NCBI GenBank assembly: GCA_964494885.1
Contig: CAZBTH010000003.1
Span: 5,983-69,982, forward strand
DNA length: 64,000 nucleotides
Source of the DNA: an uncultured Gammaproteobacteria bacterium
GTDB lineage: Bacteria; Patescibacteriota; Microgenomatia; UBA8517
Direction: 5' to 3'
Part shown: positions 1 through 38,577 of the stretch, piece by piece
How positions within the stretch are numbered: position 1 is the first letter of the stretch
Layout of the letters: every line of letters begins with the position of its first letter
The notes under the pieces: model-generated
What the model saw: the letters and a program-made list of their open reading frames with translations, nothing else
Database searches by the model: none
Told to the model about the DNA's origin: nothing
Translations under genes and position numbers: made by a program

Positions 1-1
1 C

Positions 2-196
2 GAAAACCCTCGGCGCAAGGTGCTTGAAATGCTTGTCGCGTTGAAGGCACTCCAGAAGATTCTGGACGAAATCAAGGCTTCCGAAAGCACCAACAAGCCC
101 ACCGAACCGAAACAACCGCCTGCGGCGACCGGTGTGCCCAAAGTGGAATTGCCCGAAGAGTTCCAAAAGTTTTTTGACGAACGCAACTTTAAATAA
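2..196 (+). CDS. 3' end of an unknown protein (partial, runs off the window start); GC-richer than the rest of the window
   Basis: Frame-2 translation ENPRRKVLEMLVALKALQKILDEIKASES...FFDERNFK* ends in TAA at 194-196. About 53% GC. Confidence 0.5.
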   Translation, partial: ENPRRKVLEMLVALKALQKILDEIKASESTNKPTEPKQPPAATGVPKVELPEEFQKFFDERNFK

Positions 197-216
197 TTTA
201 GCAGTACTTGGGATCA

Positions 217-254
217 CACCCGTATAAGAACTTTTTATACGGGTGTTTTTTTGC
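217..254 (+). terminator. Rho-independent terminator
   Basis: ACACCCGTATAA-gaacttt-TTATACGGGTGT, a 12-bp perfect stem, followed by TTTTTTT. Confidence 0.85.
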
Positions 255-328
255 TTGCCCGTCAAAAACGCCCTTGCGATGCAAACACGGAGTATTTGAG
301 AGTAAGTAGGTTTTGGCGGGGAAAAAAG

Positions 329-724
329 CTAAAACTCAGCCACGGGCATATGAAGATGTTTTTGGATATCACGGACTTCTCCTTGAACCTTTAAATAGTT
401 TTTGTCATGAAAGTTGAATAGTTTATCGAATTTTCGATCAAGTTTGTCAATTTTTGTATTTAATTTCTTGTCAATTTTTTGAAGCTCTTTCTTAGTAGCC
501 AATGGTTCTAGATCTTTTTTTGTAGCAAGTGATTTAAGATCTTCCTTCGAGGCTAATAGTTCTAGATCTTTTTTTGCAGCAAATTGTTCTAATTCTTTCT
601 TGGTGGCAAGTAATTCAATTTCCTTTTTTGTAGCAAGCAATTTAGTTTCTGACTGTACAATCCTTTTAGTTTCTGACTGTACAATCCCTTTAATCGCCTG
701 AAGGTCCTGCTTTGTTAGTGTCAT
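329..724 (-). CDS. Coiled-coil repeat protein, hypothetical (LATKKELE-type repeats)
   Basis: ORF with repeated (L/A)ATKK(E/D)LE heptad-like units. The DNA has a perfect 23-nt tandem duplication at 649-694. Confidence 0.5.
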   Translation of the reverse strand: MTLTKQDLQAIKGIVQSETKRIVQSETKLLATKKEIELLATKKELEQFAAKKDLELLASKEDLKSLATKKDLEPLATKKELQKIDKKLNTKIDKLDRKFDKLFNFHDKNYLKVQGEVRDIQKHLHMPVAEF

Positions 725-751
725 AACTCATTAAATATCCCCCCACCCACC

Positions 752-780
752 TTGTCAATTATATCTATCCGTATTACAAT
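752..780 (+). promoter_or_regulatory. Sigma70-like promoter for the ABC exporter
   Basis: TTGTCA-N17-TACAAT, about 70 nt upstream of the ATG at 854. Confidence 0.45.
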
Positions 781-853
781 GAAATCTAGCCACAAGATCT
801 CCCCTCGGGAAGCACTTTGAACTTGGTTGAAAAGTTTTTGTGGCGTTCAAAAA

Positions 854-2632
854 ATGTTTAAAATCTTTAAACGATTCTACTGGTTCATTTGGAAGCACAA
901 GTGGTGGTTCATCCTAGCGCAGCTGGCCACGACTATTGCTATCGTGCTTGAACTCATTACCCCCTATTTCTTTAAACTTTTTGTGGAAACTCTTCAAAGG
1001 AATGACTTGAATCATCTCTATACATTAATTCTGATCTTCATTGGAGTTTTGTTCGGCAGTCTTGTTTTTGACAATCTAAAGTTTTTTCTTGGCGACATTG
1101 TCTCGGTAGACACTGCCATAGACATAAGAACAACTATATTTAAATATATTCAGGAATTGGACTTCTCGTTTCATGCCGGAAAAAGCACTGGTTCTTTGAT
1201 TAGCGCTTTCAAGCGCGGTGACAACGCCTTTTGGGGACTTTACGAGCGCCTAAACCAAAGGATGTGGCAAATTTTTATCGGTTTTTTTGTAATGGGTTAC
1301 TTTTTTCTAAAAATCGATCCACGATTCATACTTATTTTCTTTATTTCTTTCCTCCTAACACTTGTGGCAACAAAATATCTGGCCGGTATGAACATCCGTA
1401 CGCGTGAAGAGTTTAACGAATACGAAGATAAAATATCCGGCATTATCACTGATAATTTGATCAATTACGAAACGGTAAAACTTTTTGCCAAGGAAAACTG
1501 GGAAATTGAACGGCTAAGGTCTACATTTCGTGATTGGAAAAAATTTCTTTGGAGGCATTTTTATACTTATAGGTATATTGACATGAGTGTTGGAAGTTTA
1601 ATCAACCTCTCCATATTCATTGTTTTGGCCTTTTCCCTGAACTTAATTAAGGCCGGTCAAATAGGCATCGGAGATTTTATCCTTGTTGTATCTTACGTAA
1701 ATTTGTTCTTTCCCAAGCTTTTTGATCTGATTTATGGTTTGCGCGAAATCTCAACAAGTTATGCTGACATCAAAAAATACTTTGATTTGCTGGATTACGA
1801 AATAGATGTAAAAGACCCAATAAGCCCTGTAAGCAAAGATCACGTCAACGGCATAATTGAATTTAAAGATGTCTCTTTTACCTACGGCGGGCGAAGCAAA
1901 AATGCGATTAATGGTGTTGATTTGGAGATTAAAAAAGGACAATCTGTGGCTTTGGTTGGTAGAAGCGGCAGTGGTAAAACTACGTTGGCAAAACTTTTAA
2001 TGAGATTCTACGATATCGATTCCGGAGAAATAACAATCGATGGAGTAAATATTAAAGATTTTACAAAAAGTACTCTAAGGGGATTTGTCGGAGTTGTTCC
2101 CCAAGAGCCCATTCTTTTCAATAATACTATCGCCTACAACATTGGCTACGGCTTCGGACAGGGTCGTCGGACAGGGTCGGACCCTGTCAAACAACCCGCC
2201 CGGAAAGGGTCCGACCTTTCAGAAATTAGAGCAGCTTCAAAACTTGCCAATATTGATGACTTTATTGAAAGCCTAAAGAAAAAATACGATACAGAGGTCG
2301 GCGAACGCGGGGTTAAACTTTCCGGAGGCCAAAAGCAGCGCTTGGCCATAGCGCGGATGATATTAAGCGACCCCGATATTGTTGTATTTGATGAGGCTAC
2401 AAGCCATCTTGATAGCGAGAGCGAAAAACTTATTCAGGATGCGTTTTGGAAAGCCAGAAAGGGAAAAACTACCATCATCATCGCCCACCGTTTGTCTACT
2501 ATCATGAGGGCGGACAAAATTGTGGTTATGGAACATGGGCATATTAAAGAAACAGGAACTCACGAGGGATTGGTGAAGAAAAAAGACAGTTTGTATTCCC
2601 ACTTCTGGAATTTACAAATTAAATTGGACTGA
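854..2632 (+). CDS. ABC transporter permease/ATP-binding protein (MsbA-like exporter) with an in-frame palindromic insertion
   Basis: N-terminal TM domain. Walker A GRSGSGKTT, signature LSGGQKQR, Walker B IVVFDEAT, H-loop IIIAHRL. The track start at 827 is TTG; the ATG at 854 (MFKIFKRF) is more likely. Confidence 0.9.
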   Translation: MFKIFKRFYWFIWKHKWWFILAQLATTIAIVLELITPYFFKLFVETLQRNDLNHLYTLILIFIGVLFGSLVFDNLKFFLGDIVSVDTAIDIRTTIFKYIQELDFSFHAGKSTGSLISAFKRGDNAFWGLYERLNQRMWQIFIGFFVMGYFFLKIDPRFILIFFISFLLTLVATKYLAGMNIRTREEFNEYEDKISGIITDNLINYETVKLFAKENWEIERLRSTFRDWKKFLWRHFYTYRYIDMSVGSLINLSIFIVLAFSLNLIKAGQIGIGDFILVVSYVNLFFPKLFDLIYGLREISTSYADIKKYFDLLDYEIDVKDPISPVSKDHVNGIIEFKDVSFTYGGRSKNAINGVDLEIKKGQSVALVGRSGSGKTTLAKLLMRFYDIDSGEITIDGVNIKDFTKSTLRGFVGVVPQEPILFNNTIAYNIGYGFGQGRRTGSDPVKQPARKGSDLSEIRAASKLANIDDFIESLKKKYDTEVGERGVKLSGGQKQRLAIARMILSDPDIVVFDEATSHLDSESEKLIQDAFWKARKGKTTIIIAHRLSTIMRADKIVVMEHGHIKETGTHEGLVKKKDSLYSHFWNLQIKLD

Positions 2633-3109: not shown

Positions 3110-3325
3110 TTACTCTTCTTTACTTTGCATACCCAATAACCAGAGGACAGCTTCTTTCTTATAACGGCGATCCCCTCTTGAATTTATTCTGATTGCAGGG
3201 AGTTTGCCCCGTTTACCCCATCTTTTTATAGTTAAAGGGGAGACGCGGAGAACATCTGCAACTTCACGAACTGTTAGTAAATCCGGTAGATTCTCAAGTT
3301 TTACTTTCTTTTTTCCTTCTTCCAT
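3110..3325 (-). CDS. Helix-turn-helix DNA-binding protein, excisionase/MerR-like family
   Basis: LTVREVADVLRVSPLTIKRWGKRGKLPAIRI is a typical excisionase-family HTH. Confidence 0.65.
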   Translation of the reverse strand: MEEGKKKVKLENLPDLLTVREVADVLRVSPLTIKRWGKRGKLPAIRINSRGDRRYKKEAVLWLLGMQSKEE

Positions 3326-6448: not shown

Positions 6449-6493
6449 ACTTGAAGTATACCAAAGTCTGAAAGATGTGTTACAGCGCCTTGC

Positions 6494-6511
6494 AAGGTCG
6501 GACCTTTAAAG
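6494..6511. repeat. REP-like palindrome (upstream flank of the RAYT gene)
   Basis: AAGGTCGGACCTTTAAAG, a half-site-plus-core copy of the TTTAAAGGTCGGACCTTTAAAG palindrome. Confidence 0.8.
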
Positions 6512-6527: not shown

Positions 6528-7217
6528 ATGCCCACAAAAAACTCCATTAAAATTTACGCAGAAAACACTATCTATCATGTTTACAATCGCGGCGTGGAAA
6601 AAAGAGATATCTTTCTAGACGAACAGGATTATAAAGTTTTTCTTGGATACCTAAAAGAATACTTGTCCCCACCCCCAAGTCTTGAAGATAGAATAAAAAA
6701 ATCTTTTACCTTAAAAGGTCGGACCTTTAAAGGTGTATCAAGACAGCCCAATAATTACTGCGAAAAAATTGATCTTTTGGCGTATTGTCTAATGCCCAAT
6801 CATTTTCACTTCATATTAAAACAAAATGATGACAAGAACACTTTGAAGGAATTTATGCGATCCCTACTTACAAGGTATTCAGTATATTTCAATAAAAAAT
6901 ATGAGCGTGTCGGATCGTTATTCCAAGGTAAATATAAAGCGATTATCGTAATGGACGAAGTCTATCTACTCCATCTGTCGAGATATATTCACATAAATCC
7001 TTATGAGATAACCAAAGATCTTGTAAACGCATATTCTTCTTATGCCGAATATTTAGGCATTAGGCACACAGATTGGATAAAACCAAAGCTTATACTTTCC
7101 TATTTTACCAATCAAAAAACGACCCCCGAATTTACAGCAATCAATACTTATAAAAGTTTCGTAGAAAATTATTTAAAAGATAATTCGAACATATTGGAAG
7201 GTCTAAGATTAGAGTAG
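6528..7217 (+). CDS. IS200/IS605-family Y1 (HuH) transposase, REP-associated tyrosine transposase (RAYT)-like
   Basis: YHVYNRGVEKRDIF, HuH motif LMPNHFHFIL, catalytic-Tyr motif RYIHINPY (compare YIYINP in E. coli RAYT). Flanked by REP palindromes and carries one internal copy. Confidence 0.85.
   Translation: MPTKNSIKIYAENTIYHVYNRGVEKRDIFLDEQDYKVFLGYLKEYLSPPPSLEDRIKKSFTLKGRTFKGVSRQPNNYCEKIDLLAYCLMPNHFHFILKQNDDKNTLKEFMRSLLTRYSVYFNKKYERVGSLFQGKYKAIIVMDEVYLLHLSRYIHINPYEITKDLVNAYSSYAEYLGIRHTDWIKPKLILSYFTNQKTTPEFTAINTYKSFVENYLKDNSNILEGLRLE
6711..6735. repeat. REP-like palindrome inserted in frame inside the RAYT gene
   Basis: TTAAAAGGTCGGACCTTTAAAGGTG, translated as LKGRTFKGV. Confidence 0.8.
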
Positions 7218-7241
7218 CTTTAAAGGTCCGACCTTTAAAGC
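7217..7241. repeat. REP-like palindrome (downstream flank of the RAYT gene)
   Basis: GCTTTAAAGGTCCGACCTTTAAAGC, a 25-nt near-perfect palindrome that overlaps the RAYT stop codon. Confidence 0.85.
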
Positions 7242-7799
7242 TTAATCGGTTTCGTATTCAATCACGACCCAAGGAGTTGGTTTATTAAAGCCGCACATTC
7301 TTAAGACATCAATTGAAGCCTCCCTATGTTTACCGTTTTCCACTCTTGAACCCCGAATTGCGATTTCGTCATTCTTAAAAAGGTTTTCATATACCACCCT
7401 ATCATGTATCACCTGCCCTAATCCATATAAATATTGCGGAAGGTTGTCGGTATGTCTTTTCAATTCACTGACATCGTGGGTTTCTGAATATTCTTTGAAT
7501 TTATGTTCAAATTCTCCGTATTCAGGATAGCCTTTAGGCTTAATTGGGTTTTGCTCTCTTAGAAACTTTGCCGACATTAATTCACCCCACGCTTGAGTAT
7601 CAATAACTCCTTGGCTATTTACAACACCCAGCTGATTAAGATACTGATTTAATAGCTGTCTAACACCGGCAGCTGCAGCCGGATCTTCGTGGCTTTTCTC
7701 TACAAGCCATGCCCAAAGCTTATCAATTTCTTCTGCACGCGTTTCCGAAGAACGCCTCTCGAATTGCTCTCCTCCTCTACCGAATCCACCCATATCCAT
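7242..7799 (-). CDS. Hypothetical protein, probably translationally coupled to the upstream UppS gene
   Basis: Its start lies 3 nt after the UppS stop. No recognisable motif. Confidence 0.45.
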   Translation of the reverse strand: MDMGGFGRGGEQFERRSSETRAEEIDKLWAWLVEKSHEDPAAAAGVRQLLNQYLNQLGVVNSQGVIDTQAWGELMSAKFLREQNPIKPKGYPEYGEFEHKFKEYSETHDVSELKRHTDNLPQYLYGLGQVIHDRVVYENLFKNDEIAIRGSRVENGKHREASIDVLRMCGFNKPTPWVVIEYETD

Positions 7800-10090: not shown

Positions 10091-10318
10091 ATGGCACTTG
10101 CAGAATTTAATAAGTATGAGGATCCGGAAGTCCGTGCCTGGGCTATGATTTGGAAAGTAGCGCCTCAAATGGAAAGAGTCCGTCCTTTGACTGAAGGAGA
10201 CCAAGAAACTATCGATGAAATATCAAAACTCAGAACCGAAGGAAAATTGACAGATGCTCAAAAAAAGGTATTAGATACGATTGGGATGAATGTCTCAATC
10301 GACTACGACGGCTTTTAA
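10091..10318 (+). CDS. Small hypothetical protein (75 aa)
   Basis: MALAEFNKYEDPEV... The upstream part of the 10010 ORF is probably not coding. Confidence 0.35.
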   Translation: MALAEFNKYEDPEVRAWAMIWKVAPQMERVRPLTEGDQETIDEISKLRTEGKLTDAQKKVLDTIGMNVSIDYDGF

Positions 10319-11106
10319 CATATGCGCGTACCCGTTGTCTTTTTGCCCATTACTGCATTTTTGAGACTATTTTTTTCGTTTCCATTTACAATTGAGGTCG
10401 AAATATCATATTTTTTGGCTAAAGAAAGCGCCTGTTCAACTTTATGGAGCATTCCCCCTGTCACATCTACACTTTTTGCCCCAATAATTGAAGACTTTAA
10501 TTGATTAAAATTTTTATTCGTTATTACCGGAATAATGTTTCCTTTTTCGTCGTGAACTCCATTAACATCAGTGACGTAAATCATGCGAATTTTATAGTCT
10601 CTGACTAATTTCTTAGCAACGATAGAAAGTACTTTTTCTGTGGAAAAAATCGTGCAACCTTGCCCCCTGTCCATTATTACGTCTCCATATATGACAGGGT
10701 GCGACCCTGTCAGCAAAGCTTGTTTGATCGGGTCTAAATATGATTTATTAGATACTTGTGTATCAGAAATAATGAAACTTGCGGGAGAAAACGGAAAAAC
10801 CGGGAGATTTCCTTTGATGAAAATCTTTACTAAAATGTCATTTAGAGTTCTCGCCGCGTCTTCTACTATCGTCATTCCCATCAAACTCTTAGAATTGATA
10901 AGTCCTTTTTTTGTTTGATATTTTTTGGCGGGAGTATGTGCAAAAGACCCGGCGCCATGACCGATAACAATCGCGCAGGGAAACACTTTTAGTGCCGCTT
11001 TTATTTCCCCGCCTAATCTTTTTATATTTGCCGGTCGCGCAGTAAACTCCTTGGACTTATCCGTAATTACGCTCCCTCCAAGTTTTATAAATATTAGTTC
11101 TTTCAT
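10315..11106 (-). CDS. Amino-acid-kinase-family protein, probably isopentenyl phosphate kinase
   Basis: IKLGGSVITDK, HGAGSFAH, YGDV, DVTGG and NGN motifs match IPK/FomA-type kinases. Carries the palindrome GACAGGGTGCGACCCTGTC in frame at 10694-10712. Confidence 0.7.
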   Translation of the reverse strand: MKELIFIKLGGSVITDKSKEFTARPANIKRLGGEIKAALKVFPCAIVIGHGAGSFAHTPAKKYQTKKGLINSKSLMGMTIVEDAARTLNDILVKIFIKGNLPVFPFSPASFIISDTQVSNKSYLDPIKQALLTGSHPVIYGDVIMDRGQGCTIFSTEKVLSIVAKKLVRDYKIRMIYVTDVNGVHDEKGNIIPVITNKNFNQLKSSIIGAKSVDVTGGMLHKVEQALSLAKKYDISTSIVNGNEKNSLKNAVMGKKTTGTRIC

Positions 11107-17722: not shown

Positions 17723-19009
17723 CTATATCAAGAGCTTTTTATACTTCTCCCCGTCCTTGTATGGCCCTATTATGGCCAAATTCAAGTGATCTTTAACAAA
17801 TATCTTTTTAGCTTCGTTTACGACTTCTTCTTTTGTCACTTTACCGATTCTCTTGTAAAGTTCGTCCGGAGTTAAAACCTCTTTCAAAAACATCACCTGT
17901 TCTGCAAAAAAGTCGCCTGCTGCTTGAGTATCTTCCAAGGAAAGCGCAATATGGCCCTTAAGATATTCTTTTGTTTTTTCCAACTCCTTGGGGGAAATCG
18001 GAAACTTGCCGTCCGCCAGACCGTAGAGTTGATCCAGAATAACTTTAATTGCTTCTTCGCTCTTGCCCGTATCCACACCTGCATAAAACCCTGTATATCC
18101 TACTTCGTTAAATTTATCTCCTGCCGGTTTAACAGCGTATGCCAATCCACGACGTTCCCTGACTTCTATAAACAACCTTGAACTCATAGGCCCTGCCAGT
18201 ATTGTGGAAAGTACACTTTGGGCAAATCGTCCCGAATACCCCCTGCCCTCGCTTAAAAAACCAAGGATTATATGAGCCTGTTCAACCTTTTTGATTTTAA
18301 GTTTAAATTTAGGACTTTTTTGTTCCGCTTTAAAGGTCTGACCTTTAAAGTCACTTATAGTTTTTCCACCTAGTGGGTGGAGAGAAGTAAAATATTTATT
18401 TACTAATTCAAGGGCTTCTTTTTCTGTAATACCGCCAGAAACTGAAACAAACATATTTTCGGGATAGTAATGTCGTCCTCTGTAAAGTTCGAAGTCGCTT
18501 TTAGTTATTCGTTTTACGCTCTTTGCTTCCCCACCTATATCCCACCCCAATGAACTACCTTTAAAAATTAGCCCCTCAAAAACATCGTGAATTTTTACCA
18601 TTGGAGTATCCTCGTACATCGCAAGTTCCTGAATAATCGTCCCTTTTTCGCGTTCTATCTCCTCGGGTTTTAGAAGCGGAGAAAGAACCATGTCACTTAA
18701 TACATCCATTGCGGTTTCGACACTACCTGAACGGGATTTTATATAAAAATTTGTCCAATCCTTACTTGTTGCCGCATTAAACTCTCCTCCTATCGAGTCC
18801 ACCGCCTCACTAATTGCCTTAGCGGAAGGTCTTTTTGCACTACCCTTAAAAACCATGTGTTCTAAGAAGTGGCTGATACCGTTGATTCGTTTGTCCTCAA
18901 ATCTTGACCCGGTTTTGACCCACACAGTTACGGTTACCGACTCCAACCCCGGCATGGGGACAGTTACAACAGTCAAACCGCTTTTTAGTTTATGAAGTTT
19001 GTATTCCAT
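17723..19009 (-). CDS. M16-family zinc peptidase (pitrilysin/insulinase-like) with an in-frame REP insertion
   Basis: Inverted zinc motif HFLEHMVFKGS (HxxEH). The likely start is MEYKLHKL at 19009. Confidence 0.8.
   Translation of the reverse strand: MEYKLHKLKSGLTVVTVPMPGLESVTVTVWVKTGSRFEDKRINGISHFLEHMVFKGSAKRPSAKAISEAVDSIGGEFNAATSKDWTNFYIKSRSGSVETAMDVLSDMVLSPLLKPEEIEREKGTIIQELAMYEDTPMVKIHDVFEGLIFKGSSLGWDIGGEAKSVKRITKSDFELYRGRHYYPENMFVSVSGGITEKEALELVNKYFTSLHPLGGKTISDFKGQTFKAEQKSPKFKLKIKKVEQAHIILGFLSEGRGYSGRFAQSVLSTILAGPMSSRLFIEVRERRGLAYAVKPAGDKFNEVGYTGFYAGVDTGKSEEAIKVILDQLYGLADGKFPISPKELEKTKEYLKGHIALSLEDTQAAGDFFAEQVMFLKEVLTPDELYKRIGKVTKEEVVNEAKKIFVKDHLNLAIIGPYKDGEKYKKLLI
18328..18350. repeat. 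REP-like palindrome inside the M16 peptidase coding sequence
   Basis: CTTTAAAGGTCTGACCTTTAAAG, translated in frame as FKGQTFKA. Confidence 0.85.
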
Positions 19010-26195: not shown

Positions 26196-28025
26196 TCACA
26201 TTCGTTCGGGCGCTTGTATCCCAAGAAGTTGAAGGCCATTCTTAAGTATCTGCCCTGTTGCAGCTGTAAGCGTCACTCTGAATGCACTTATACTCTTCCA
26301 CTCTTCTGCTTTTCTACTCTCATCCTCCAAAATTCTAAATTTATTGTAAAAAGTATTATATTTCGAAGCCAAATCATATAAATAGTTACACAAAAGATTG
26401 GGTGAGTAAGTTTTGGCTGCAGTCGCTATTACCTCAGTAAATCGGGATAAAGCTCTTAGTAACGACAATTCTTCTTCAGTTTCCATTTTCCATTTGCCAT
26501 TTATCATTTCATTTGTAGATTTGCTTATTTGCTTATTTGTAGATTTAAGAAGTACGCTGTTGCATCGAGCAACTGTATATTGAAGATATGGGCCCGAGTT
26601 GCCTTCCAAAGACAGGGAACTTTCAAAATCGAACGCAATGTCCCCGCCTATCCCTTGCTTTAAAAATGCATATTTAACGGCTCCAAGGGCAACCTGTTCT
26701 GCAATTTCATCTTCCATATTGTGTGCATCAAGAAGTTTTTTCTTAGCTTCGTCCAAAACCCATTCCCCCCTAATAATTTTTCCGGTTCTTGAACTCATCT
26801 TTCCTTCGGGAAGACGGACCATCCCGTGCCCTATGTGTGTTGTAGCCTCGGCAAGATCCTTTTTGTACATAGATAGGGCTTTAAGGACAACGTCAAAATA
26901 GGCATCAATCTCGTTACCGGTCACGATAATCGATTTGTCATATGGAAAATCTTTGTATTTGGCAACAGCATTGCCGAAATCCTTGGCTTCGTATGTGGGC
27001 AAATTAAGGGCATTTATAAAAACCCTATTATGCAAACCGTATTTTTCTCCAGGAAAAATTACAGCGCCACGCTCACCCTTCTCAAAAATTCCTTTGGCCA
27101 AACCGTCCAAAACCATTCCATAGCCAAATTCTCCGGTTCTGCTTTCCGGATAATAGCCGTCAAACTTCATCCCAACCCTTTTATAAATTGATTCGAAATA
27201 TTCCAAACTCCATGCCCTACCAATTTCATAAATATTTTTGATTTCAGAATAAGAATACTTGCCGTCTTTTTTGATATATTGATCGTAGTTCACCTGTGGA
27301 GATTCGTTGAATTCCGGCAAAACCACTTCCTGTGCAGCCTTGAAAATTAAAAAGTTAAGCTCTTTCATATCTTCTACTGCTTTCGGATCTTCTTCAAAAG
27401 CAGTTGCACCTTTTGCGTATGCTTGTCCAAAATACTCGATTCTTTCTTTTAGAGGCTTTTCGGTAAGGTCTTTAATATCAACTTTGTCCTCTGAAAACTT
27501 AAACATTAAACCCCAAATCGCCTTGGCAGCATGCATGCCAACATCGCCAAAATAATCGGCTCGCCATACGTCTCCGCCAATCGCGCTTTGCAAGCGGCTA
27601 ATCGATTCACCAACCGTATTTGTATATAAGTGGCCTATATGAAACTCTTTGAATGGGTTGGGATCGGTATATTCAACAACTACTTTTTTACCCTTAAGAA
27701 AACCGCTCTTTCCATAACTTTCCCCTTCTTTCTGTATCTTCCCAAGCTCGTTGACAAGGGTCCCCCCTGTCAACCAAAAATTTATAAAACCCGGGCCGGC
27801 GACTTCAATTTTTTCAATAAATTTGGATAATTCGGGAGACTGGGATAGTTTGATTTTGATTTCTTCAGCCAATTCCCTTGGATTTTTGCCCTCGCTTTTT
27901 GCCATGATTAGCGCAATATTGCACGAGTAGTCGCCGAATGTTTCGTTTTCGGGAAATTCCAAGCTGATTTCCTTTGCTTTGGTTACAGCTTCTAAAGCCG
28001 TTAGTATTTTAGTTCTAGTTTCCAT
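26196..28025 (-). CDS. argS: Arginine--tRNA ligase
   Basis: HIGH-class motif region and KMSSRTG (the KMSKS-like motif). C-terminus ...LLGIQAPERM. The likely start is METRTKIL at 28025. Confidence 0.9.
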   Translation of the reverse strand: METRTKILTALEAVTKAKEISLEFPENETFGDYSCNIALIMAKSEGKNPRELAEEIKIKLSQSPELSKFIEKIEVAGPGFINFWLTGGTLVNELGKIQKEGESYGKSGFLKGKKVVVEYTDPNPFKEFHIGHLYTNTVGESISRLQSAIGGDVWRADYFGDVGMHAAKAIWGLMFKFSEDKVDIKDLTEKPLKERIEYFGQAYAKGATAFEEDPKAVEDMKELNFLIFKAAQEVVLPEFNESPQVNYDQYIKKDGKYSYSEIKNIYEIGRAWSLEYFESIYKRVGMKFDGYYPESRTGEFGYGMVLDGLAKGIFEKGERGAVIFPGEKYGLHNRVFINALNLPTYEAKDFGNAVAKYKDFPYDKSIIVTGNEIDAYFDVVLKALSMYKKDLAEATTHIGHGMVRLPEGKMSSRTGKIIRGEWVLDEAKKKLLDAHNMEDEIAEQVALGAVKYAFLKQGIGGDIAFDFESSLSLEGNSGPYLQYTVARCNSVLLKSTNKQISKSTNEMINGKWKMETEEELSLLRALSRFTEVIATAAKTYSPNLLCNYLYDLASKYNTFYNKFRILEDESRKAEEWKSISAFRVTLTAATGQILKNGLQLLGIQAPERM

Positions 28026-28059
28026 ATAAATTTTATAACTTTTATAATAGTTATAATTG

Positions 28060-28611
28060 TTATACACTGCTTTTTTTATACTCCATCCTCTTTTTAAACA
28101 AGTTCTCTCTAAAACCACCCTCTTTAATAAATTTCTCCTCGGTCCAACGAAGTTTTTGATCCAAAAGTTGGTTTGTTTGGTTTATTAAACAAAGCATGGC
28201 GTTGGCTGCAGCCTCGGGGTTCCCAATATAACTTTTATAAAGGTTATAATTTTTATAATTGTTATACGCAAGCCGTCGGACAGCTTGCGCCTCAGAAGAG
28301 CCCACTTCCCAAACCTTTAACCCTTTTTGTCTTAAGTAATCTTGATAGTCATTTAACAGTTCTTCTAAACTTCCTCTGGCAACACCTAAAAGTTTAATTC
28401 TGCCTTCCAGGCTTTTTTGCAAATATCCTTCAGCTATATTCTGTTTGCCGCTTCTTGCCGCCTGCTCCATTTGGTCTTTGGTGCGAGATTTGTAATTGAT
28501 ATAGAGTTTGCAAAATTCAACAGTAAAATCGTAAACAATTTCGCTTTGAATATAGAAAGGTAACGTTTTGTAACCCTTATTTTCCATTTTTACTATTTTA
28601 TTATAACCCAT
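28060..28611 (-). CDS. Four-helix-bundle protein (TIGR02436 family, long form; paralog of 16114)
   Basis: TVEFCKLYINYKSRTKDQMEQAARSGKQNIAEG aligns with the 16114 ORF. Confidence 0.6.
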   Translation of the reverse strand: MGYNKIVKMENKGYKTLPFYIQSEIVYDFTVEFCKLYINYKSRTKDQMEQAARSGKQNIAEGYLQKSLEGRIKLLGVARGSLEELLNDYQDYLRQKGLKVWEVGSSEAQAVRRLAYNNYKNYNLYKSYIGNPEAAANAMLCLINQTNQLLDQKLRWTEEKFIKEGGFRENLFKKRMEYKKSSV

Positions 28612-29708: not shown

Positions 29709-30181
29709 TATTTGATGATAACCGGTGTGTCACAGCACACCTTTCCGGCTTTTTTAGCCTCTATAAACATCGGGCAGTTGACGCACTCACCCCAAACCTC
29801 CTTTGGCAACAAATCGGGATCTGTTAATATTTCTACTCCATTGTCCAAAAATATCTTTAAACTTTTTTCGTTACATAAAGCAAAAAGTTTAGCTTCTGGA
29901 AAAATCAATTTGGCCGCCGAAATTAGATCTTTGACCACTTTGTGTCCCAATCCGTGTTCTCTTTTGACCGGATCCACAATCACCGCCCCAAGTTCTTTCC
30001 AGCCATCTGGCCAATCAAATGTTATGGCTCCAAATCCGGCCACTTCCCCATCGCCATTTAAGACAACGATACCCCTTCCCTCTTCCAGAAATTTAAAAAT
30101 TTCTTCGGGACTTTTGGGTAGCATTGACCCCGACTCTTTAGTCCAATCTGATATTTTTATTGACACGTTTTCTCTTTCCAT
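29708..30181 (-). CDS. GNAT-family N-acetyltransferase with a C-terminal Cys cluster
   Basis: Acetyl-CoA-binding region GLGHKVVKDL. C-terminal CVNCP...CC. Confidence 0.6.
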   Translation of the reverse strand: MERENVSIKISDWTKESGSMLPKSPEEIFKFLEEGRGIVVLNGDGEVAGFGAITFDWPDGWKELGAVIVDPVKREHGLGHKVVKDLISAAKLIFPEAKLFALCNEKSLKIFLDNGVEILTDPDLLPKEVWGECVNCPMFIEAKKAGKVCCDTPVIIK

Positions 30182-30182
30182 G

Positions 30183-30219
30183 TGCGCCCGGCGGGAATCG
30201 AACCCACAACCACGGGCGC
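30183..30219 (-). ncRNA. tRNA-like minihelix (acceptor stem plus T-arm only) abutting the GNAT start codon
   Basis: On the minus strand: GCGCCCG-TGGTT-GTGGG-TTCGATT-CCCGC-CGGGCGC-A, followed immediately by CATGG, the GNAT start. There is no D-arm or anticodon arm. Confidence 0.5.
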
Positions 30220-30224
30220 AAGCT

Positions 30225-30267
30225 AGACTACGTTCTTTATTCCCCTTGGAACGTAGTCTCTTTTTGG
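30225..30267 (+). terminator. Strong hairpin plus T-run (plus-strand terminator-like) next to the minihelix
   Basis: AGACTACGTTC-13 nt loop-GAACGTAGTCT followed by CTTTTTGG. Confidence 0.45.
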
Positions 30268-30397
30268 ACTTATTTTGTTATGCAAAAGGTATATCTTGCT
30301 CCAGTTACACAAACAACTTTGTTGTCATTTGTGTTTTTATTACAACCTACAAGTAATAGCGACACCAAGGTCAAACAGGTAAGCAACTTCCTGATTT

Positions 30398-30637
30398 TCA
30401 TCGTCCACCTCGACTGTCAAAAGGGCTTGATTTTGGTGCATCCCCGGGCGGCTCCGGCGGATCATCGTCTACGAGAAGCGACCCAACGAACAGCAATATC
30501 GCTCCGATAGAAAATCCGTCCATCATGCCGGTTAATATTGGATGTGGCGGCCAGACACCCTCTTTGAACGCAAAAATTGCAATGAGCAGACTAAACCCAA
30601 GCAATATTGTGCCCAAATAACGAAATAACTTTTTCAT
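30398..30637 (-). CDS. Small two-TM membrane protein (79 aa)
   Basis: AAGGAG SD 6 nt upstream of the ATG at 30637. The track N-terminal extension (MHIKNVNIKN) is encoded by a 16-nt tandem repeat and is probably 5' UTR. Confidence 0.55.
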   Translation of the reverse strand: MKKLFRYLGTILLGFSLLIAIFAFKEGVWPPHPILTGMMDGFSIGAILLFVGSLLVDDDPPEPPGDAPKSSPFDSRGGR

Positions 30638-30689
30638 CGTATACTCCTTTTTTACGTTTTTTATGTTTACGTTTTTTATGTGCAACTTT

Positions 30690-30900
30690 GGGCCACAAAC
30701 CCTCCTTCGCGCAAGGCTTCGGAAGGGTCGCTAACGCAAAAAGCCCCGTTAGCGTCCGAGAAATAAATCTCAGAAACTAAAGGGGCTCTTCACTTACGGC
30801 TAGAGGGCGGCTTGCCACTCCGTAGCCTTGGCGAAGGGTGGTACCACCCTTGTTCAATTATCCTTAAAACCATCCAACTCCGCACGAGGCTTCGTTGGAC
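30690..30900 (-). other. GC-rich ORF-free structured region (candidate leader, riboswitch or ncRNA) upstream of the small membrane gene
   Basis: Several perfect hairpins: CGCTAACG...GTTAGCG, AAGGGTGG-ta-CCACCCTT, CCGCG-ttgta-CGCGG. Local GC about 52% against about 38% background. Confidence 0.4.
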
Positions 30901-34866: not shown

Positions 34867-35493
34867 ATATACACTTACCAAATCTTTTATCTTGTTATAC
34901 GCAGAACTCTTCAAAACACCTTTTGACAGCAATTCTTCAACGTTTGAGTACGGTCTGTGTTCAATTATGTTTTGGCCATAAACTTGGCCAATTCCAGGCA
35001 ATGAGTCGAGCTCCTGAAGGGTCGCTGTATTGATATTGACAAGGGGGCCCCTTGTCACCCCTAAAACGGGTTGATCTACTTTGATATCATCATAAGTTTT
35101 AGCAGTCAAGTTGTCTGACTGCTGATTGGCGTTGGGTATATACACCTTTTGTCCGTCTGTTAATTTTGCCGCGCGGTTTAGATATTTATCCGTCCAAACT
35201 CTGTCCGCGTTAACCGAAAACCCGCCGGAAACAACCAAAAGATCCTCAACGCGACTACCACCGGAAAGTTTATAAACACCCGGTTTAACTACTTCTCCAG
35301 CAATTTCCACTGTTAAGTCCTGACGAATGTCGAAACCTTCGTTATTATCAAGAATTTCAACCTTTGTTGATGGAGACGCCAGTCCACTTTTAAAAAAGAA
35401 AATCCCCGCGCCGGTAGCGATCAACCCCCCGAGAAGTATTAAAAGAGGATAACGAAAACGGTTTAACATTTCATCTATATTGAAGCTGTGCAT
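34864..35493 (-). CDS. comEA: Competence protein ComEA (SLBB plus helix-hairpin-helix DNA-binding)
   Basis: HhH motif INTATLQELDSLPGIGQVYGQNIIEHR. N-terminal TM anchor. Confidence 0.8.
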   Translation of the reverse strand: MHSFNIDEMLNRFRYPLLILLGGLIATGAGIFFFKSGLASPSTKVEILDNNEGFDIRQDLTVEIAGEVVKPGVYKLSGGSRVEDLLVVSGGFSVNADRVWTDKYLNRAAKLTDGQKVYIPNANQQSDNLTAKTYDDIKVDQPVLGVTRGPLVNINTATLQELDSLPGIGQVYGQNIIEHRPYSNVEELLSKGVLKSSAYNKIKDLVSVY

Positions 35494-35567: not shown

Positions 35568-38126
35568 TCAACCTATTACAAAATTAATTACCTTGCCGGA
35601 TATAAAAATTGTCTTTTTAATGGTTTGCCCTTCCAACCACTTGGCCACATTAGCGTCAGATTTGGCCAATTTGGTTACCTCAGATTCTTGCTTCGAGATT
35701 CCAGATTCCAGCTTCAAAGTAGCCCTTAACTTGCCATTGACTTGAACCACAACCGTGACCTTATTCTGAACAATAAGTTTAGGGTCGTAGGAAGGCCAAG
35801 GAGCCTTGTGAATGCTAAAAGGCATACCTAAGACCTCTACCCATATTTCCTCCATCATATGAGGCGCAAAAGGGGCCAGGAGGAGGGCCAAAGCACTTAA
35901 GACCTCAGAAGTCTGATGACTGATATTTGATGTCTGAATCGAAGTTTGATTTTCGATCTTCGTTTTTCCGACTTCGTTTCTGATTTCAGACTTCTGACTT
36001 CCGGCTTCTGTTAGTGTATTCACCAGTTCCATAAGAGATGAAATTGCCGTATTGAATTTATAGTTTTCAATATCCTCCCCCACTTTTTTGATAGTTTGGT
36101 GGAGCTTTGATAAAACTTCACTGTTGACTGCTGATTGTTGACTGCTGATTGTTGACTGTTGGAACAGACGCCAAACACGTCCCAAAAATCTGGCTATTCC
36201 TTCAACTCCTGTTATACTCCACGGTTTCATTACGTCAAACGGTCCCATAAACATTTCATAAACACGAAGCGTATCAGCTCCAAATTTGGGAATAATATCG
36301 TCAGGTGTAATCACATTTCCCCATCTTTTGCTCATTTTGCGGGAATCAGGTCCAAGTATCCAACCAGGAGCACGGAGCTTTAAAAATGGCTCGTCTCCCA
36401 CAGATTTATCGATTAGACCTTGGTCAAATAAGAACTTCCAGAAAAATCTGGCAAAAAGTAAATGTTGGACAACATGTCCCCCGCCAACGTAGTCGTCAAC
36501 AGGAATAATATTTTCTTTTGAAGCAAACTCTTTAATATTCTTTGGATCGCAAAATCTCATAAAATACCAAGAGGAGTCAACATATGTATCCATTGTATCA
36601 ACCTCTCGTTTGGCCGGCTTTCCACAAATAGGACAGACTACATCTTTCTGGAAAGTTTTAGATCTGGCAATCGGACTTTCACCATGTGGTTGGAAATCGA
36701 CATCGGTAGGAAGAACAACTGGTAGATTTTTTTCTTCTACGGGAAACCAGCCAGCCATACCTTTAAAGGATGATCCTTTAAAGGTGTCGGATGCACAATG
36801 CTCGCAATAGATCATGGGGATAGGACAACCCCAATATCTTTGGCGGGAAATTAACCAATCACGGATATGGTAAGAGACCGTTCTCTTGCCAATTCCTTTA
36901 TCCTCAAACCAGTCCATAGTCTTTTGCAATCCCTCTTCGAAACTCAAGCCGTTTAGAAATTCAGAATTGATAAATTTTCCTTCCATCCCATGTTCAATAA
37001 CCTGTTCTTTTGTTTCTATTTCTGAAGTATCGCCGTCTTTTCCTACAATGACCCTAACAATAGGAAGGTCGTATTTTTTGGCAAACTCAAAATCATTCAA
37101 GTCATGTCCCGGACAACCCTGAACAGCTCCTGTCCCCACACCGGCAACTACAAAATCAGAAACCCAAACCGGAACTTCTTTGTTGTTTATAGGATTAATT
37201 GCATACAAACCGGTAAACACCCCTGTTTTTGTCTTATTGGCCACATTTGTCACATTAGATGAATTAGAAAGATGCTCTTTGATGTATTTATCTACACTTT
37301 CTTGATTCTCTTTAGGGATCTTAAGTTGTTTTAATAGTTTGTGTTCTGGAGCTAAAACCAGAAAAGTCATGCCGAAATTTACAGGAGCAGTTGTAAAAAC
37401 TTCTATTTCCTCGTCGGAATCAACAACCTTATATCGAATATTTATCCCTTCTTTCCTCCCAATCCAATTAACCTGCTGTCTTTTAACTTCGTCTTCCCAA
37501 TCAATTTTTTCAAGACCCGAGATTAAACGGTCAGCATAGGCAGTGATTTTAAAGAACCACTGATCCATATCTTTTTGTATTACTTCTGTATCACACCGTT
37601 CACATTTACCCTCAACCACTTGTTCATTGGCCAAAACTGTTTCATCTTTAGGACACCAATTGACAGGAGACTTCTTTTTGTAAGCCAAACCAGCTTTGAA
37701 AAGCTGAATAAATATCCACTGAGTCCATTTATAAAATTCGGGAGAACTTGTGTCAATTTCCTTATCCCAATCATAAGACATGCCGCTTATTTCCAATTGG
37801 CGTTTGAATGTTTTTATATTCTCGTGAGTGGATTTATCAGGGTGAATCCCGGTTTTAATAGCATAATTTTCCGCGGGAAGGCCAAATGCATCCCACCCCA
37901 TCGGATGAAGAACGGAATGACCCCTCATCCTAAAATATCGGGACAGGATATCTGTGCCAACATAGCCCTCAAGATGACCAACATGCATCGAGGCGCCGGA
38001 AGGATAAGGGAACATGTCCAAGATATACTTTTTCTTTTTTCCGGCTTCCGGAGTTTTGTAAACACCCTCCTTCTCCCATTTTTTTTGCCATTTTGGTTCG
38101 ACAACTGAATGGTCGTATTTATCCAT
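35568..38126 (-). CDS. leuS: Leucine--tRNA ligase with several in-frame repeat insertions
   Basis: HMGHLEGY (HIGH) and KMSKRWGN (KMSKS). Conserved editing and anticodon-binding regions. Confidence 0.95.
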   Translation of the reverse strand: MDKYDHSVVEPKWQKKWEKEGVYKTPEAGKKKKYILDMFPYPSGASMHVGHLEGYVGTDILSRYFRMRGHSVLHPMGWDAFGLPAENYAIKTGIHPDKSTHENIKTFKRQLEISGMSYDWDKEIDTSSPEFYKWTQWIFIQLFKAGLAYKKKSPVNWCPKDETVLANEQVVEGKCERCDTEVIQKDMDQWFFKITAYADRLISGLEKIDWEDEVKRQQVNWIGRKEGINIRYKVVDSDEEIEVFTTAPVNFGMTFLVLAPEHKLLKQLKIPKENQESVDKYIKEHLSNSSNVTNVANKTKTGVFTGLYAINPINNKEVPVWVSDFVVAGVGTGAVQGCPGHDLNDFEFAKKYDLPIVRVIVGKDGDTSEIETKEQVIEHGMEGKFINSEFLNGLSFEEGLQKTMDWFEDKGIGKRTVSYHIRDWLISRQRYWGCPIPMIYCEHCASDTFKGSSFKGMAGWFPVEEKNLPVVLPTDVDFQPHGESPIARSKTFQKDVVCPICGKPAKREVDTMDTYVDSSWYFMRFCDPKNIKEFASKENIIPVDDYVGGGHVVQHLLFARFFWKFLFDQGLIDKSVGDEPFLKLRAPGWILGPDSRKMSKRWGNVITPDDIIPKFGADTLRVYEMFMGPFDVMKPWSITGVEGIARFLGRVWRLFQQSTISSQQSAVNSEVLSKLHQTIKKVGEDIENYKFNTAISSLMELVNTLTEAGSQKSEIRNEVGKTKIENQTSIQTSNISHQTSEVLSALALLLAPFAPHMMEEIWVEVLGMPFSIHKAPWPSYDPKLIVQNKVTVVVQVNGKLRATLKLESGISKQESEVTKLAKSDANVAKWLEGQTIKKTIFISGKVINFVIG
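36760..36784. repeat. REP-like palindrome inside the LeuS coding sequence
   Basis: CCTTTAAAGGAT-G-ATCCTTTAAAGG is a perfect 12+1+12 palindrome, translated TFKGSSFKG. It lies in an insertion relative to canonical LeuS. Confidence 0.85.
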
Positions 38127-38127
38127 A

Positions 38128-38577
38128 TTATTTCCAAAGTGAAAACCTCTTAGTTAAAGGGTCTATATCACTTTTTGCTCCAAACGCGCAAACACCATAA
38201 TATTCCAAATTTTCCTCAAGCGTGTTTTTGGTACGTTCTTTTTGTTCCTCAAACGTTCCCACGGTCATTGTATCTGTAAAATCTACAAAATGAACGCCAG
38301 AGTCCATTAAATTTTTCCTAAAAGTGCGGATTTGATTCGAGTTGTCTGCCGAAAGGATTATAAATCCATGATCAGAAATACTGCTGTGACGCCCATCATT
38401 TTTATCAATATGTGTATCAAACCTCATCTCTGAGATATTTGGATAACTAGCAGATAGGCCCGCTGACATATGCGCCAAGGCATTCATTAGTTTCCCGACA
38501 GAAATTTTTTTATTCAAAACGGCTACAAATTTGTTTTTTAGTTCTCCTGTTTCCATATTTTTATTTCTATATTGCAA
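38128..38577 (-). CDS. DUF2000-family protein (PTH2-like fold)
   Basis: KFVAVLNKKISVGKLMNALAHMSAGL...HGFIILSADNSNQIRTF...YYGVCAFG matches the DUF2000 pattern. Confidence 0.55.
   Translation of the reverse strand: MQYRNKNMETGELKNKFVAVLNKKISVGKLMNALAHMSAGLSASYPNISEMRFDTHIDKNDGRHSSISDHGFIILSADNSNQIRTFRKNLMDSGVHFVDFTDTMTVGTFEEQKERTKNTLEENLEYYGVCAFGAKSDIDPLTKRFSLWK

Follow-up and report, generated by a model that had tools for sequence, protein, structure and literature searches.

An extra loop in an ABC exporter of a Microgenomates-group bacterium, likely built from REP palindromes of a RAYT-associated family

An extra loop in an intact exporter

How did an intact ABC exporter gene come to encode an additional loop made of palindromic DNA? 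The gene was located in a stretch of 64,000 nucleotides (hereafter the window) from what the names of its homologues indicated to be a Microgenomates-group (CPR/Patescibacteria) bacterium. An initial annotation had described a double palindrome inside the exporter that kept the reading frame open, and this was borne out: the sequence was as quoted and every ABC motif was intact (Table 1). With ABC_membrane and ABC_tran present and all motifs preserved, the product was a type I (ABCB-like) exporter, and its Walker A, Q-loop, LSGGQ, Walker B and H-loop were invariant in a 47-sequence alignment. The exporter was also essential-looking. An identical protein was found in NCBI/ENA and, with an earlier start codon, in JGI (P0001 and P0002), so an assembly artefact was unlikely. 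A TTG at 827 was an alternative start codon of the gene. Two small overlapping ORFs (2146-2349 and 2085-2276) both fell entirely within the exporter gene, and nothing spoke for either as a gene; the latter had been assigned to the minus strand but was on the plus strand.

The proposal that the segment was an insertion relative to ABC homologues was supported by alignment. A gap of about 12-17 residues opened at this site against the ABCB4 and ABCB1 structures, and the usual loop, KDxPKL, had six residues where the window had 22. At the DNA level, the nearest insert-free orthologue (L005/P0007) had 15 nt encoding KNDPT in place of 63 nt in the window. The net gain was therefore 48 nt or 16 amino acids rather than the roughly 24 initially proposed. 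The position also needed correction, since the insert was not directly ahead of the signature motif but about 35 residues before LSGGQ and about 15 residues past the Q-loop glutamine Q417, where it occupied the loop joining two helices of the helical subdomain of the nucleotide-binding domain (NBD). Local GC content was 62-63% at the insert versus 39% for the exporter gene; GC-rich islands of 40 nt were common in this 40% GC window, so composition alone was not diagnostic.

Table 1. Coordinates of the exporter, the transposase gene and the palindromes in the window
Feature	Position	Strand	Remarks
ABC exporter gene, type I (ABCB-like), fused TMD+NBD, 592 aa	854-2632	+	ATG at 854; Pfam ABC_membrane and ABC_tran
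13-nt tandem half-copy CGGACAGGGTCGT, repeating the left half of the next palindrome	2155-2167	+	Direct-repeat family D1
Inserted/remodelled segment FGQGRRTGSDPVKQPARKGSD, 63 nt	2156-2218	+	DNA comparison with L005/P0007
Palindrome 1, REP GACAGGGTCGGACCCTGTC, TGACAGGG…CCCTGTCA class (type A)	2170-2188	.	Core GGTCGGACC, centre G
Spacer between the two REPs, 14 nt	2189-2202	+	
Palindrome 2, REP GAAAGGGTCCGACCTTTC, AAAGGTCNGACCTTT class (type B) plus one extra G	2203-2220	.	Core GGTCCGACC, centre C
REP TTGCAAGGTCGGACCTTTAAA	6490-6510	.	Located 17 nt ahead of the start codon of the RAYT
RAYT-like Y1/HUH tyrosine transposase gene, 229 aa	6528-7217	+	HUH motif NHFHF; Tyr motif SRYIHINP
REP-like palindrome in frame within the RAYT gene	6711-6731	.	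Peptide LKGRTFKG
REP AGCTTTAAAGGTCCGACCTTTAAAGCT, 13-bp stem	7216-7242	.	At the RAYT stop codon; inverted versus 6490-6510
Type-A palindrome TGACAGGGTGCGACCCTGTCA in the isopentenyl phosphate kinase (IPK) gene	10692-10712	.	
REP CTTTAAAGGTCTGACCTTTAAAG in frame in the peptidase M16 gene	18328-18350	.	FKGQTFK
Type-A palindrome TGACAAGGGTCCCCCCTGTCA in frame in ORF 26196-28118 (-)	27752-27772	.	
Type-A palindrome TGACAAGGGGGCCCCTTGTCA in frame in the ComEA-like gene	35037-35057	.	
REP-like palindrome ACCTTTAAAGGATGATCCTTTAAAGGT in frame in the LeuRS gene	36759-36785	.	Within 14-aa insertion ASDTFKGSSFKGMA

Orthologues of the exporter were compared at the loop, with loop lengths taken from 118 of them. 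The closest ones, 83-86% identical, lacked the insert, and a six-residue loop followed the conserved GYG in most of the 120 orthologues listed, the closest (P0003-P0005, P0007 and P0008) included. More distant orthologues carried different palindromes at exactly the same loop. The pattern that would have marked the segment as ancestral, its presence in unrelated lineages, was therefore not seen, in line with the original suggestion. Four orthologues (L001-L004) carried AAAGGTCGGACCTT…AAAGGTCCGACCTT, translated as KGRTL or KGPTL; in the window this core was shared but its reading frame was shifted by one base, giving TGSDPV and KGSDLS. Judged from these sequences, conservation at the loop is at the level of nucleotides and not of the peptide. 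The palindrome arms of L004 had compensatory changes (GGACGGACC / GGTCCGTCC), and the inserts varied among lineages in sequence, length and reading frame. A search for AAAGGTCNGACCTTT among the orthologue loci returned no match, because TTA or TTG closes the arms in the orthologues.

In the AlphaFold2 model of the exporter (mean pLDDT 86.4), residues 436-452 were the sole stretch of at least three residues with pLDDT below 50, and no secondary structure was assigned to 435-454. The inserted loop is accordingly modelled as disordered, and the low pLDDT together with the absent secondary structure suggests that it is exposed at the surface. The inserted peptide, rich in Gly, Arg, Ser, Pro and Lys, was probably a disordered passenger without a function of its own, and we infer that it is neutral.

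A palindrome family with a transposase

The insert consisted of two palindromes in inverted orientation. The first was a perfect 9-bp stem with a 1-nt centre; the second was inverted relative to it, and its 3' end overlapped the native LSE codons. Since this right arm shared codons (PTLSE) with the orthologues, the boundaries of the element were uncertain. The segments 2175-2188 and 2203-2216 were 93% complementary to each other across the 14-nt spacer, which is the arrangement of a REPIN, and the same layout was present in L002 and L003. Next to the doublet, CGGACAGGGTCGT and CGGACAGGGTCGG formed the 13-nt tandem half-copy pair, indicating that local slippage also contributed.

In 100 shuffles, palindrome 1 was matched 0.00 times with up to three mismatches allowed. 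The 9-nt cores GGTCGGACC and GGTCCGACC (GGTCSGACC) occurred five times in the window versus 0.16 expected; two of these were the insert arms and the other three were at the transposase gene. The centre bases agreed as well, with G in the left and C in the right copy both in the insert and at the transposase flanks. Outside the core of 9-11 nt, the insert arms differed from the copies flanking the transposase. The whole 63-nt composite had no second copy in the window, where only its units recurred.

The transposase gene was located about 4 kb from the exporter insert, and its product had more than 7,800 relatives. It matched Pfam PF01797 (Y1_Tnp) at 36.2 bits (cut-off 23), and its best and sole NCBIfam match was REP_Tyr_transpos (NF047646, REP-associated tyrosine transposase) at 45.6 bits. 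The equivalog cut-off of 80 for this model was not reached, which indicates a divergent subfamily. Other features were those of a RAYT: a Y1/HUH domain with NHFHF and SRYIHINP conserved in the window, L063 and L073, and inverted copies of CTTTAAAGGTCNGACCTTTAAAG bordering the gene, with centre G upstream and centre C downstream. There was one copy of the gene in the window, no tnpB-like gene among the adjoining ORFs, and no match in a PDB sequence search. A RAYT cognate to the class of the left arm was not visible within the window. The peptide FTL(K/Q)GxTFKG, encoded by the palindrome inside the transposase gene, was conserved in most of the 120 RAYT homologues listed.

In total, 11 palindromes of three related classes were found in the window, nine of them within ORFs with Pfam-supported products; an extragenic location, expected for REPs, therefore did not apply. 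Searching the window for repeats of the two complete palindromes recovered only the IPK look-alike, and it took a general scan for palindromes to reveal the family. In LeuRS, the 14-aa insertion was a gap relative to the T. thermophilus enzyme (2v0c), and the peptidase M16 loop was about seven residues longer than in 3hdi, although weakly resolved. ORF 26196-28118 was read by eye and is presumably ArgRS. The IPK palindrome was ruled out as an insertion because the protein did not differ in length from solved homologues, so that simple insertion does not account for it.

Related palindromes were also present in other genomes. Inverted flank matches of at least 13/14 on both sides were found at 48 of 78 metagenomic RAYT loci and at none in shuffled controls. 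RAYT homologues in L089 and L115 were flanked by TGACAGGG…CCCTGTCA, the class of the insert's left arm. Moreover, two loci (L063 and L073) were located by the REP pattern alone, and each had a RAYT homologue beside the match and inverted REPs at both ends; in L120 and L063 the RAYT was flanked by REP doublets. A pattern scan of 596 Gb of contigs gave 72 matches, near the approximately 70 estimated by chance, and about half of them were due to chance or peptide-driven, such as EVIFG(E/K)GQTFKAGT in Lachnospiraceae proteins. The signal of the scan is in the concentration in CPR MAGs and in full 21-nt palindromes, which were found at 12 loci (about one expected by estimate), nearly all in MAGs named CPR or suspected CPR. 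Many dispersed copies were in frame in ORFs of 300-800 aa. With 11 copies in the window and further copies in many CPR MAGs, the units were short, dispersed, multi-copy palindromes, as REPs (20-40 nt) are. The GTAG or CGTC head (PMC3733652) was not consistent in the flanks of the copies examined in the window and at other loci: GTAG preceded only the copy at 7216, and CGTC preceded the copy at 2170.

Origin of the loop

We consider it likely that the extra loop is an inverted REP doublet (REPIN-like) with a slipped half-copy, and that the doublet comes from a REP family linked to a RAYT-type Y1/HUH transposase of a Microgenomates-group genome. Because its 16 additional residues are encoded by palindromes of the family that flanks the RAYT, the loop would represent selfish palindromic DNA tolerated in a coding gene. 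In the proposed mechanism, the RAYT encoded in the window (6528-7217) or, for the TGACAGGG class, a paralogue at another genomic site would recognise the REP hairpin in single-stranded DNA and cut and rejoin it, as do TnpA of IS200/IS605 and TnpA-REP of E. coli. REP units would thereby be copied into new sites, and in a gene-dense genome most of these would be coding. Only those copies would survive that added a multiple of three bases, were read in one of the palindrome's two stop-free frames and fell in a surface loop that tolerated them. One such site would be the loop after GYG, repeatedly struck or remodelled in different lineages. We infer that the element in the exporter was moved by a RAYT.

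An origin in place, without transposition, seems unlikely. Template switching or hairpin-primed synthesis plus slippage on a part-palindromic loop would have built the insert, and quasi-palindrome correction would have kept its arms symmetrical. Such a process fits the 13-nt tandem duplication and the codons for K-x-x-P-T-L-S-E, which insert-free orthologues carry and the right arm overlaps. It also fits the REP-like peptides found without a change of length in some orthologues (FEGPTL in P0004 and FKGATL in P0103) and the IPK palindrome of unchanged length. However, it cannot account for the same 9-21-nt sequences at unrelated loci of the window and in many other genomes, nor for inverted palindromes flanking RAYT genes. 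Selection for a function, either of an mRNA or DNA hairpin (for example as a site for translational pausing between NBD subdomains, for an RNase or for protein binding) or of a regulatory peptide loop, is quite improbable. The insert region had a stable predicted RNA fold (-34.7 kcal/mol, z = -2.6), palindromes recurred at exactly this loop in many lineages, and REPs elsewhere have been reported to affect mRNA fate. On the other hand, the closest orthologues manage without the insert, its sequence, length and frame differ by lineage, its peptide is modelled as disordered, and a search of Rfam at the insert gave no family match even at E = 1.

That the loop is an assembly or sequencing artefact, or part of a pseudogene, is very hard to sustain. 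A low-coverage contig (L163) was chimeric or variant within the exporter gene, but it diverged at window position 1936, well upstream of the insert; independent sources had the identical protein, and the frame was open with all ABC motifs in place. The comparison with Rickettsia palindromic elements (RPEs) made in the initial annotation was apt with respect to behaviour, since a selfish-type palindrome in frame adds a peptide to an intact exporter. True membership in the RPE families has next to no probability. The shared habit of in-frame insertion into conserved proteins and the placing of RPE-4 and RPE-6 among CGTC-type REPs by Di Nocera et al. (PMC3733652) would speak for it; however, the units here were 19-27 nt and showed no consensus head of the CGTC or GTAG type, homologue names pointed to a CPR bacterium as host, and RPE-1-type elements are palindromic insertions of greater length than the REPs covered by that paper. 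Unit size, host and the presence of a candidate transposase argue against membership.

Implications and comparison with known systems

Work on REP/RAYT systems has centred on Proteobacteria, and the systems are treated as extragenic. The REP doublet in the exporter points to a related system in CPR genomes, which are ultra-small and dense in genes. Most of the copies seen here are in frame in conserved genes: the ABC exporter, LeuRS, peptidase M16 and the transposase gene itself. Short GC-rich loops of low model confidence in CPR proteins are thus at risk of being misread as lineage-specific functional insertions. Such REP loops could serve as presence/absence markers for tracing strains and lineages, and the RAYT is a candidate enzyme for the behaviour known from RPEs. 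In the literature searched for REP, RAYT or REPIN with CPR or Patescibacteria, no paper was found besides a 2026 Nanobdellota preprint containing "REP-associated" and CPR terms. A more speculative idea, to which we give little weight, is that the RAYT/REP system of CPR bacteria may lie mostly within genes and repeatedly reshape particular surface loops. It is suggested by different REP classes at the same exporter loop in different lineages, by REP-like palindromes that replace native codons at unchanged length (IPK), and by the REP-encoded FTL(K/Q)GxTFKG fixed within the RAYT protein. The latter could reflect binding of the transposase to a hairpin in its own gene or mRNA (autoregulation) or an exapted REP-derived peptide.

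The GC clusters of yeast mitochondria are likewise short, GC-rich palindromes; they spread through a genome that is richer in AT and can be read in frame within a coding gene (VAR1), but they are unrelated in sequence and host and involve no Y1 transposase. RPE-1-type elements exceed 100 nt and are not known to have a dedicated transposase. According to Ogata et al. (2000), as cited in PMC3733652, RPEs are palindromic repeats in frame in conserved protein genes whose function is presumed to be kept. The window shares such in-frame insertion (ABC exporter and LeuRS) and differs in the length of its elements and in having a candidate RAYT. Intragenic GTAG/CGTC REPs, as singles and dimers encoding about 20-30 aa, are found in genes of known proteins, including tRNA synthetase genes, and were interpreted as tolerated decorations (Di Nocera et al. 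2013, PMC3733652). The REPs of the window similarly lie inside genes of known proteins, a tRNA synthetase gene (LeuRS) included, but belong to a different sequence class and phylum; one loop of one orthologous exporter gene holds different REP classes in different lineages.

With IS200/IS605 (TnpA Y1; PMC6006769) the system shares the transposase superfamily and, presumably, the recognition of subterminal hairpins in single-stranded DNA. In contrast to these elements, there is no multi-copy IS and no tnpB here, and the mobile units would be the hairpins alone. The closest likeness in layout is to the REP/REPIN-RAYT systems of E. coli, Pseudomonas and Stenotrophomonas (Nunvar 2010, PMC2817692; Bertels and Rainey 2011, PMC3116915, PMC3337134), where a single Y1/HUH gene likewise lies between inverted short palindromes that also occur scattered through the genome, frequently in inverted pairs that can fold into a longer hairpin. 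In comparison to these systems, the units of the window are shorter and nearly perfect (21-27 nt, 1-nt centre) with no GTAG head found, its transposase scores under the NCBIfam RAYT equivalog cut-off, and nine of its 11 palindromes lie in coding rather than intergenic sequence of a CPR/Patescibacteria host.

The extra loop of the ABC exporter

The fused exporter matched the ABCB1, ABCB4, ABCB6 and Sav1866 structures with E values down to 1e-133, and all of its ABC motifs were intact. Between the conserved NIGYG and SEIRAASK its peptide was FGQGRRTGSDPVKQPARKGSDL, and the DNA of this extra loop was TTCGGACAGGGTCGTCGGACAGGGTCGGACCCTGTCAAACAACCCGCCCGGAAAGGGTCCGACCTT. The initial annotation had claimed an in-frame insertion of about 24 residues here, and alignment with ABC exporter homologues bore out the insertion itself: a gap of ~12-17 residues opened exactly at the site in the HMMER alignments to ABCB4 and ABCB1, ~15 residues past the Q-loop glutamine Q417 and ~35 residues ahead of LSGGQ. 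Most of the best 120 homologues, which were from Microgenomates, Woesebacteria and other members of the candidate phyla radiation (CPR) where named by source, had six residues, typically KDKPKL, between GYG and (S/K)EI. A six-residue loop was also found in all six proteins (P0003, P0004, P0005, P0007, P0008 and P0012) that clustered with the window exporter in a neighbour-joining tree with the loop masked. Since the loops of this nearest group and of most homologues were six residues long, the net gain was 16 aa (48 nt) rather than the size claimed. At the DNA level, the insert had 63 nt versus 15 nt (AAGAACGATCCCACA) in an 86% identical orthologue (L005). The extra loop is a lineage-specific insertion.

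In the AlphaFold2 model of the exporter (47 sequences; mean pLDDT 86.4, pTM 0.79), residues 436-452 were the sole stretch of at least three residues with pLDDT below 50, and residues 435-454, between helices 426-434 and 455-464, had no secondary structure, so that the insert is modelled as a disordered loop of the helical subdomain. From this model, the loop would be exposed at the surface.

An ENA contig (NODE_12711, coverage 2.3; L163) was 100% identical to window 1-1935 and continued from there, in the same reading frame, with a sequence resembling D12-class DNA methyltransferases in place of the ABC nucleotide-binding domain (protein P0066). The contig is either a low-coverage assembly chimera or stems from a variant strain whose exporter is disrupted.

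Palindromes in the insert, the window and the RAYT gene

A repeat search found in the insert the pair GACAGGGTC/GACCCTGTC, whose complementarity was 100% and whose arms were 1 nt apart on the second copy, an inverted 14-nt pair (2175-2188 / 2203-2216, 93% complementary) and a three-member direct-repeat family CGGA(C/A)AGGGTC…, one member being a 13-nt tandem half-copy. The 19-nt palindrome of the insert would not be expected by chance; shuffles gave 0.00 matches even with 3 mismatches allowed. GC reached 62-63% at the insert versus 39% for the gene, and GC-rich islands as such were common in the window (40% GC). The 76 nt around the insert folded at -34.7 kcal/mol as RNA (z = -2.6) and at -16.6 kcal/mol as DNA (z = -1.9).

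Features of the window
Feature	Position	Strand	Remarks
ORF, 131 aa	329-724	-	Repeated (L/F)A(T/S/A)KK(E/D)(I/L)E(L/P/Q) units, coiled-coil-like; matching tandem DNA repeats at ~480-650
Fused ABC exporter, 592 aa	854-2632 (alternative TTG start 827)	+	Pfam ABC_membrane + ABC_tran
RAYT-like transposase ORF	6528-7217	+	Pfam Y1_Tnp (IS200-like), 36.2 bits vs cut-off 23
Type A palindromes, TGACA(A)GGG…CCC(T)TGTCA	2170		Left arm of insert
	10692-10712		Isopentenyl phosphate kinase (IPK) gene 10315-11106 (-)
	27752-27772		In frame in ORF 26196-28118, presumably ArgRS (by eye)
	35037-35057		In frame in ComEA-like gene (SLBB + HHH domains)
Type B palindrome CTTTAAAGGTCNGACCTTTAAAG	7216-7242; 18328-18350
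Type B near copies	6490-6510; 6711-6731
Type B variant	36759-36785		LeuRS gene 35568-38153 (-)
Perfect 20-nt GC-rich palindrome CCTGCCTGCCGGCAGGCAGG	55778-55797		In frame (RLPAGRQG) in SH3_3 domain protein ORF 55152-55835

The window contained 30 perfect hairpins (stem of at least 8 bp, loop of up to 8 nt) versus 4-15 in shuffles. Among them were palindromes of the insert's types at sites unrelated to the exporter gene. The exact core GGTCSGACC occurred five times versus 0.16 expected; two sites were the arms of the insert, and the other three (6496, 6717 and 7225) surrounded and entered the ORF of the candidate REP-associated tyrosine transposase (RAYT; REP, short repetitive palindrome). The sole NCBIfam match of this ORF was 'REP-associated tyrosine transposase' (45.6 bits, under the cut-off of 80), and no tnpB-like gene was found among its neighbouring ORFs. 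The palindrome upstream of the RAYT gene had G at its centre and the downstream one, at the stop codon, had C; therefore, the flanking copies were inverted. The insert had the same G-then-C order. The near copy inside the RAYT gene was REP-like and in frame, and its peptide FTL(K/Q)GxTFKG(V/I)PRQPKNY was conserved in most of the closest 120 RAYT homologues; FTL(K/Q)GxTFKG was absent from the distant homologues L063 and L073. This palindrome may be an ancient fixed REP insertion or a self-binding site.

Other genes were decorated as well. LeuRS had a 14-aa insertion (ASDTFKGSSFKGMA) relative to the T. thermophilus enzyme, encoded around the palindrome ACCTTTAAAGGATGATCCTTTAAAGGT directly past the CxxC of the zinc-binding motif, and a peptidase M16 loop at a palindrome was ~7 residues longer than in 3hdi. 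The IPK palindrome (TGACAGGGTGCGACCCTGTCA) agreed with the left arm of the insert at 17/19 positions and lay within a conserved segment, LLTGSHPVIYGD, that aligned to solved IPKs with no gap or length change. Thus, copies of the REP family were not all simple insertions. The GC-rich palindrome at 55778 was nearly identical to CCTGCCTCGCCGGCAGGCAGG in the exporter loop of L009, and the two may represent a third REP class. Elsewhere, window 30176-30850 was GC-rich and structured-looking, with no tRNA or tmRNA by ARAGORN, no Rfam match at gathering score and, at 30191-30207 on the minus strand, weak similarity (13 bits, E = 0.01) to the 3' portion of tmRNA that holds the T-arm; the stretch may contain the gene of a divergent tmRNA or of some other structured RNA.

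REP classes in exporter orthologues and around RAYT genes

Longer loops were present in ~20 of the best 120 exporter homologues, and the loop DNA was read in ten orthologues. It was TAC AAAGGTCGGACCTT AAAAGGTGGATCTGAAA AAGGTCCGACCTT ATCAGAA in L002 (similar in L001 and L003), AAGGGACGGACCCTT … AAAGGTCCGTCCTTT with compensatory arm changes in L004, GGACAAGGTCCGTCCCTGTC in L006, GACAAGGGCCCCCCTTGTC in L007, GACAAGGGGCCCCCTTGTC in L010 and a palindrome read as LPRRQAG in L009; L008 had the right arm only. The shared layout consisted of a left arm core, GGTCGGACC, and a right arm core, GGTCCGACC, each arm being self-palindromic and the two mutually inverted. The core was read GGG TCG GAC CC in the window (TGSDPV, KGSDLS) and GGT CGG ACC in other orthologues (KGRTL, KGPTL); therefore, the nucleotide sequence was conserved and not the peptide. 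Orthologues with inserts were interspersed among insert-free ones in the loop-masked tree. The loop would have been struck or remodelled repeatedly, or the inserts frequently lost.

At loci L001, L004 and L005-L009, the exporter orthologue was usually located 3' of a divergent 7TM_transglut gene, past which most had ATP-grasp (RimK-like) genes, and a small MerR/HTH_17 gene was often downstream. The arrangement points to a conserved neighbourhood for peptide modification and export; of its genes, the window showed just the HTH one (3110-3325, minus strand).

A scan of one genome per species (596 Gb) for AAGGTCNGACCTTTAAAG (17 specified bases) returned 72 stretches, close to the ~70 estimated by chance, and the full 21-nt palindrome was present at 12 loci versus ~1 estimated by chance. 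Many copies were in frame within ORFs of 300-800 aa and read FKGxTFK or LKVxPLK, the two palindrome frames with no TAA stop. In tblastn searches with the window RAYT, L063 and L073 had a RAYT homologue directly beside the REP match and inverted REPs at both gene ends. MAGs with CPR lineage names held 17 of the 72 stretches, and a further 14 were in TPA MAGs labelled 'uncultured Gammaproteobacteria'; one of these 14, CAZWNZ01, was the contig carrying the orthologous exporter L001.

These labels look wrong. Several TPA MAGs so labelled had CPR-type REPs, at loci L013, L020, L023, L026, L033, L037, L053, L058, L059, L063, L064, L072, L075 and L080; among MAGs with this label, L063 had a RAYT homologue and CAZWNZ01 a Microgenomates-type ABC exporter orthologue.

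When metagenomes were scanned with the aligned RAYTs of the window, L063 and L073, more than 546 relatives were returned, 80 of which were kept, and 78 loci had both flanks (77 metagenomic or genomic homologues and the window's own). When the 130 nt on either side of the gene were compared, 48 of these 78 loci showed inverted matches of 13/14 or better, and none of the shuffled controls did. The flanking palindromes formed a continuum, xxxxAGG(G)TY-N-RAC(C)CTxxxx, with type A at L089 (TGACAGGGCGAGACCCTGTCA / TGACAGGGTCTCGCCCTGTCA) and L115, type B doublets at L120, and the GGACGGACC variant, as in the L004 exporter loop, at L104 and L132. Since both types flanked RAYT homologues, both arms of the insert belonged to REP classes of the RAYT clade. 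At a threshold of E <= 1e-10 this clade numbered over 7,800 proteins, with source names, where given, of Patescibacteria, Woesebacteria or Microgenomates 'transposase' and, once, 'REP element-mobilizing transposase RayT'.

Origin of the insert and known in-frame REPs

The best-supported reading is that the insert is an in-frame REP doublet (REPIN-like) with a slipped half-copy, derived from a RAYT-associated REP family. By analogy with TnpA-REP and IS200/IS605 enzymes (PMC2817692, PMC3116915, PMC6006769), we infer that the RAYT moved the doublet. The insert would have been tolerated because it was a multiple of three bases, had no stop codons and was placed in a permissive loop. Local slippage and template switching clearly contributed, given the tandem half-copy and a right arm that overlapped native codons; however, they are insufficient alone, as they leave unexplained why the same sequences recur at other sites and flank RAYT genes. 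That the RNA or the peptide has a selected function is disfavoured: the closest exporter orthologues had no insert, its sequence and frame varied between lineages, and no Rfam family matched the insert region.

Our literature search found no paper joining REP, RAYT or REPIN terms with CPR or Patescibacteria, with one possible exception, a 2026 Nanobdellota preprint that contains both 'REP-associated' and CPR terms. For REPs of the GTAG and CGTC types, in-frame copies are on record, among them dimers that encode 20-30 aa and copies within tRNA synthetase genes (PMC3733652), and thus the phenomenon was already known; the Rickettsia palindromic elements RPE-4 and RPE-6 have been grouped with CGTC REPs (PMC3733652). 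In contrast to these, the REP class reported here had neither a GTAG nor a CGTC head, and both this class and its CPR-type host lineage are new, as are the predominance of intragenic copies and the finding that different REP classes have repeatedly occupied the same orthologous loop.
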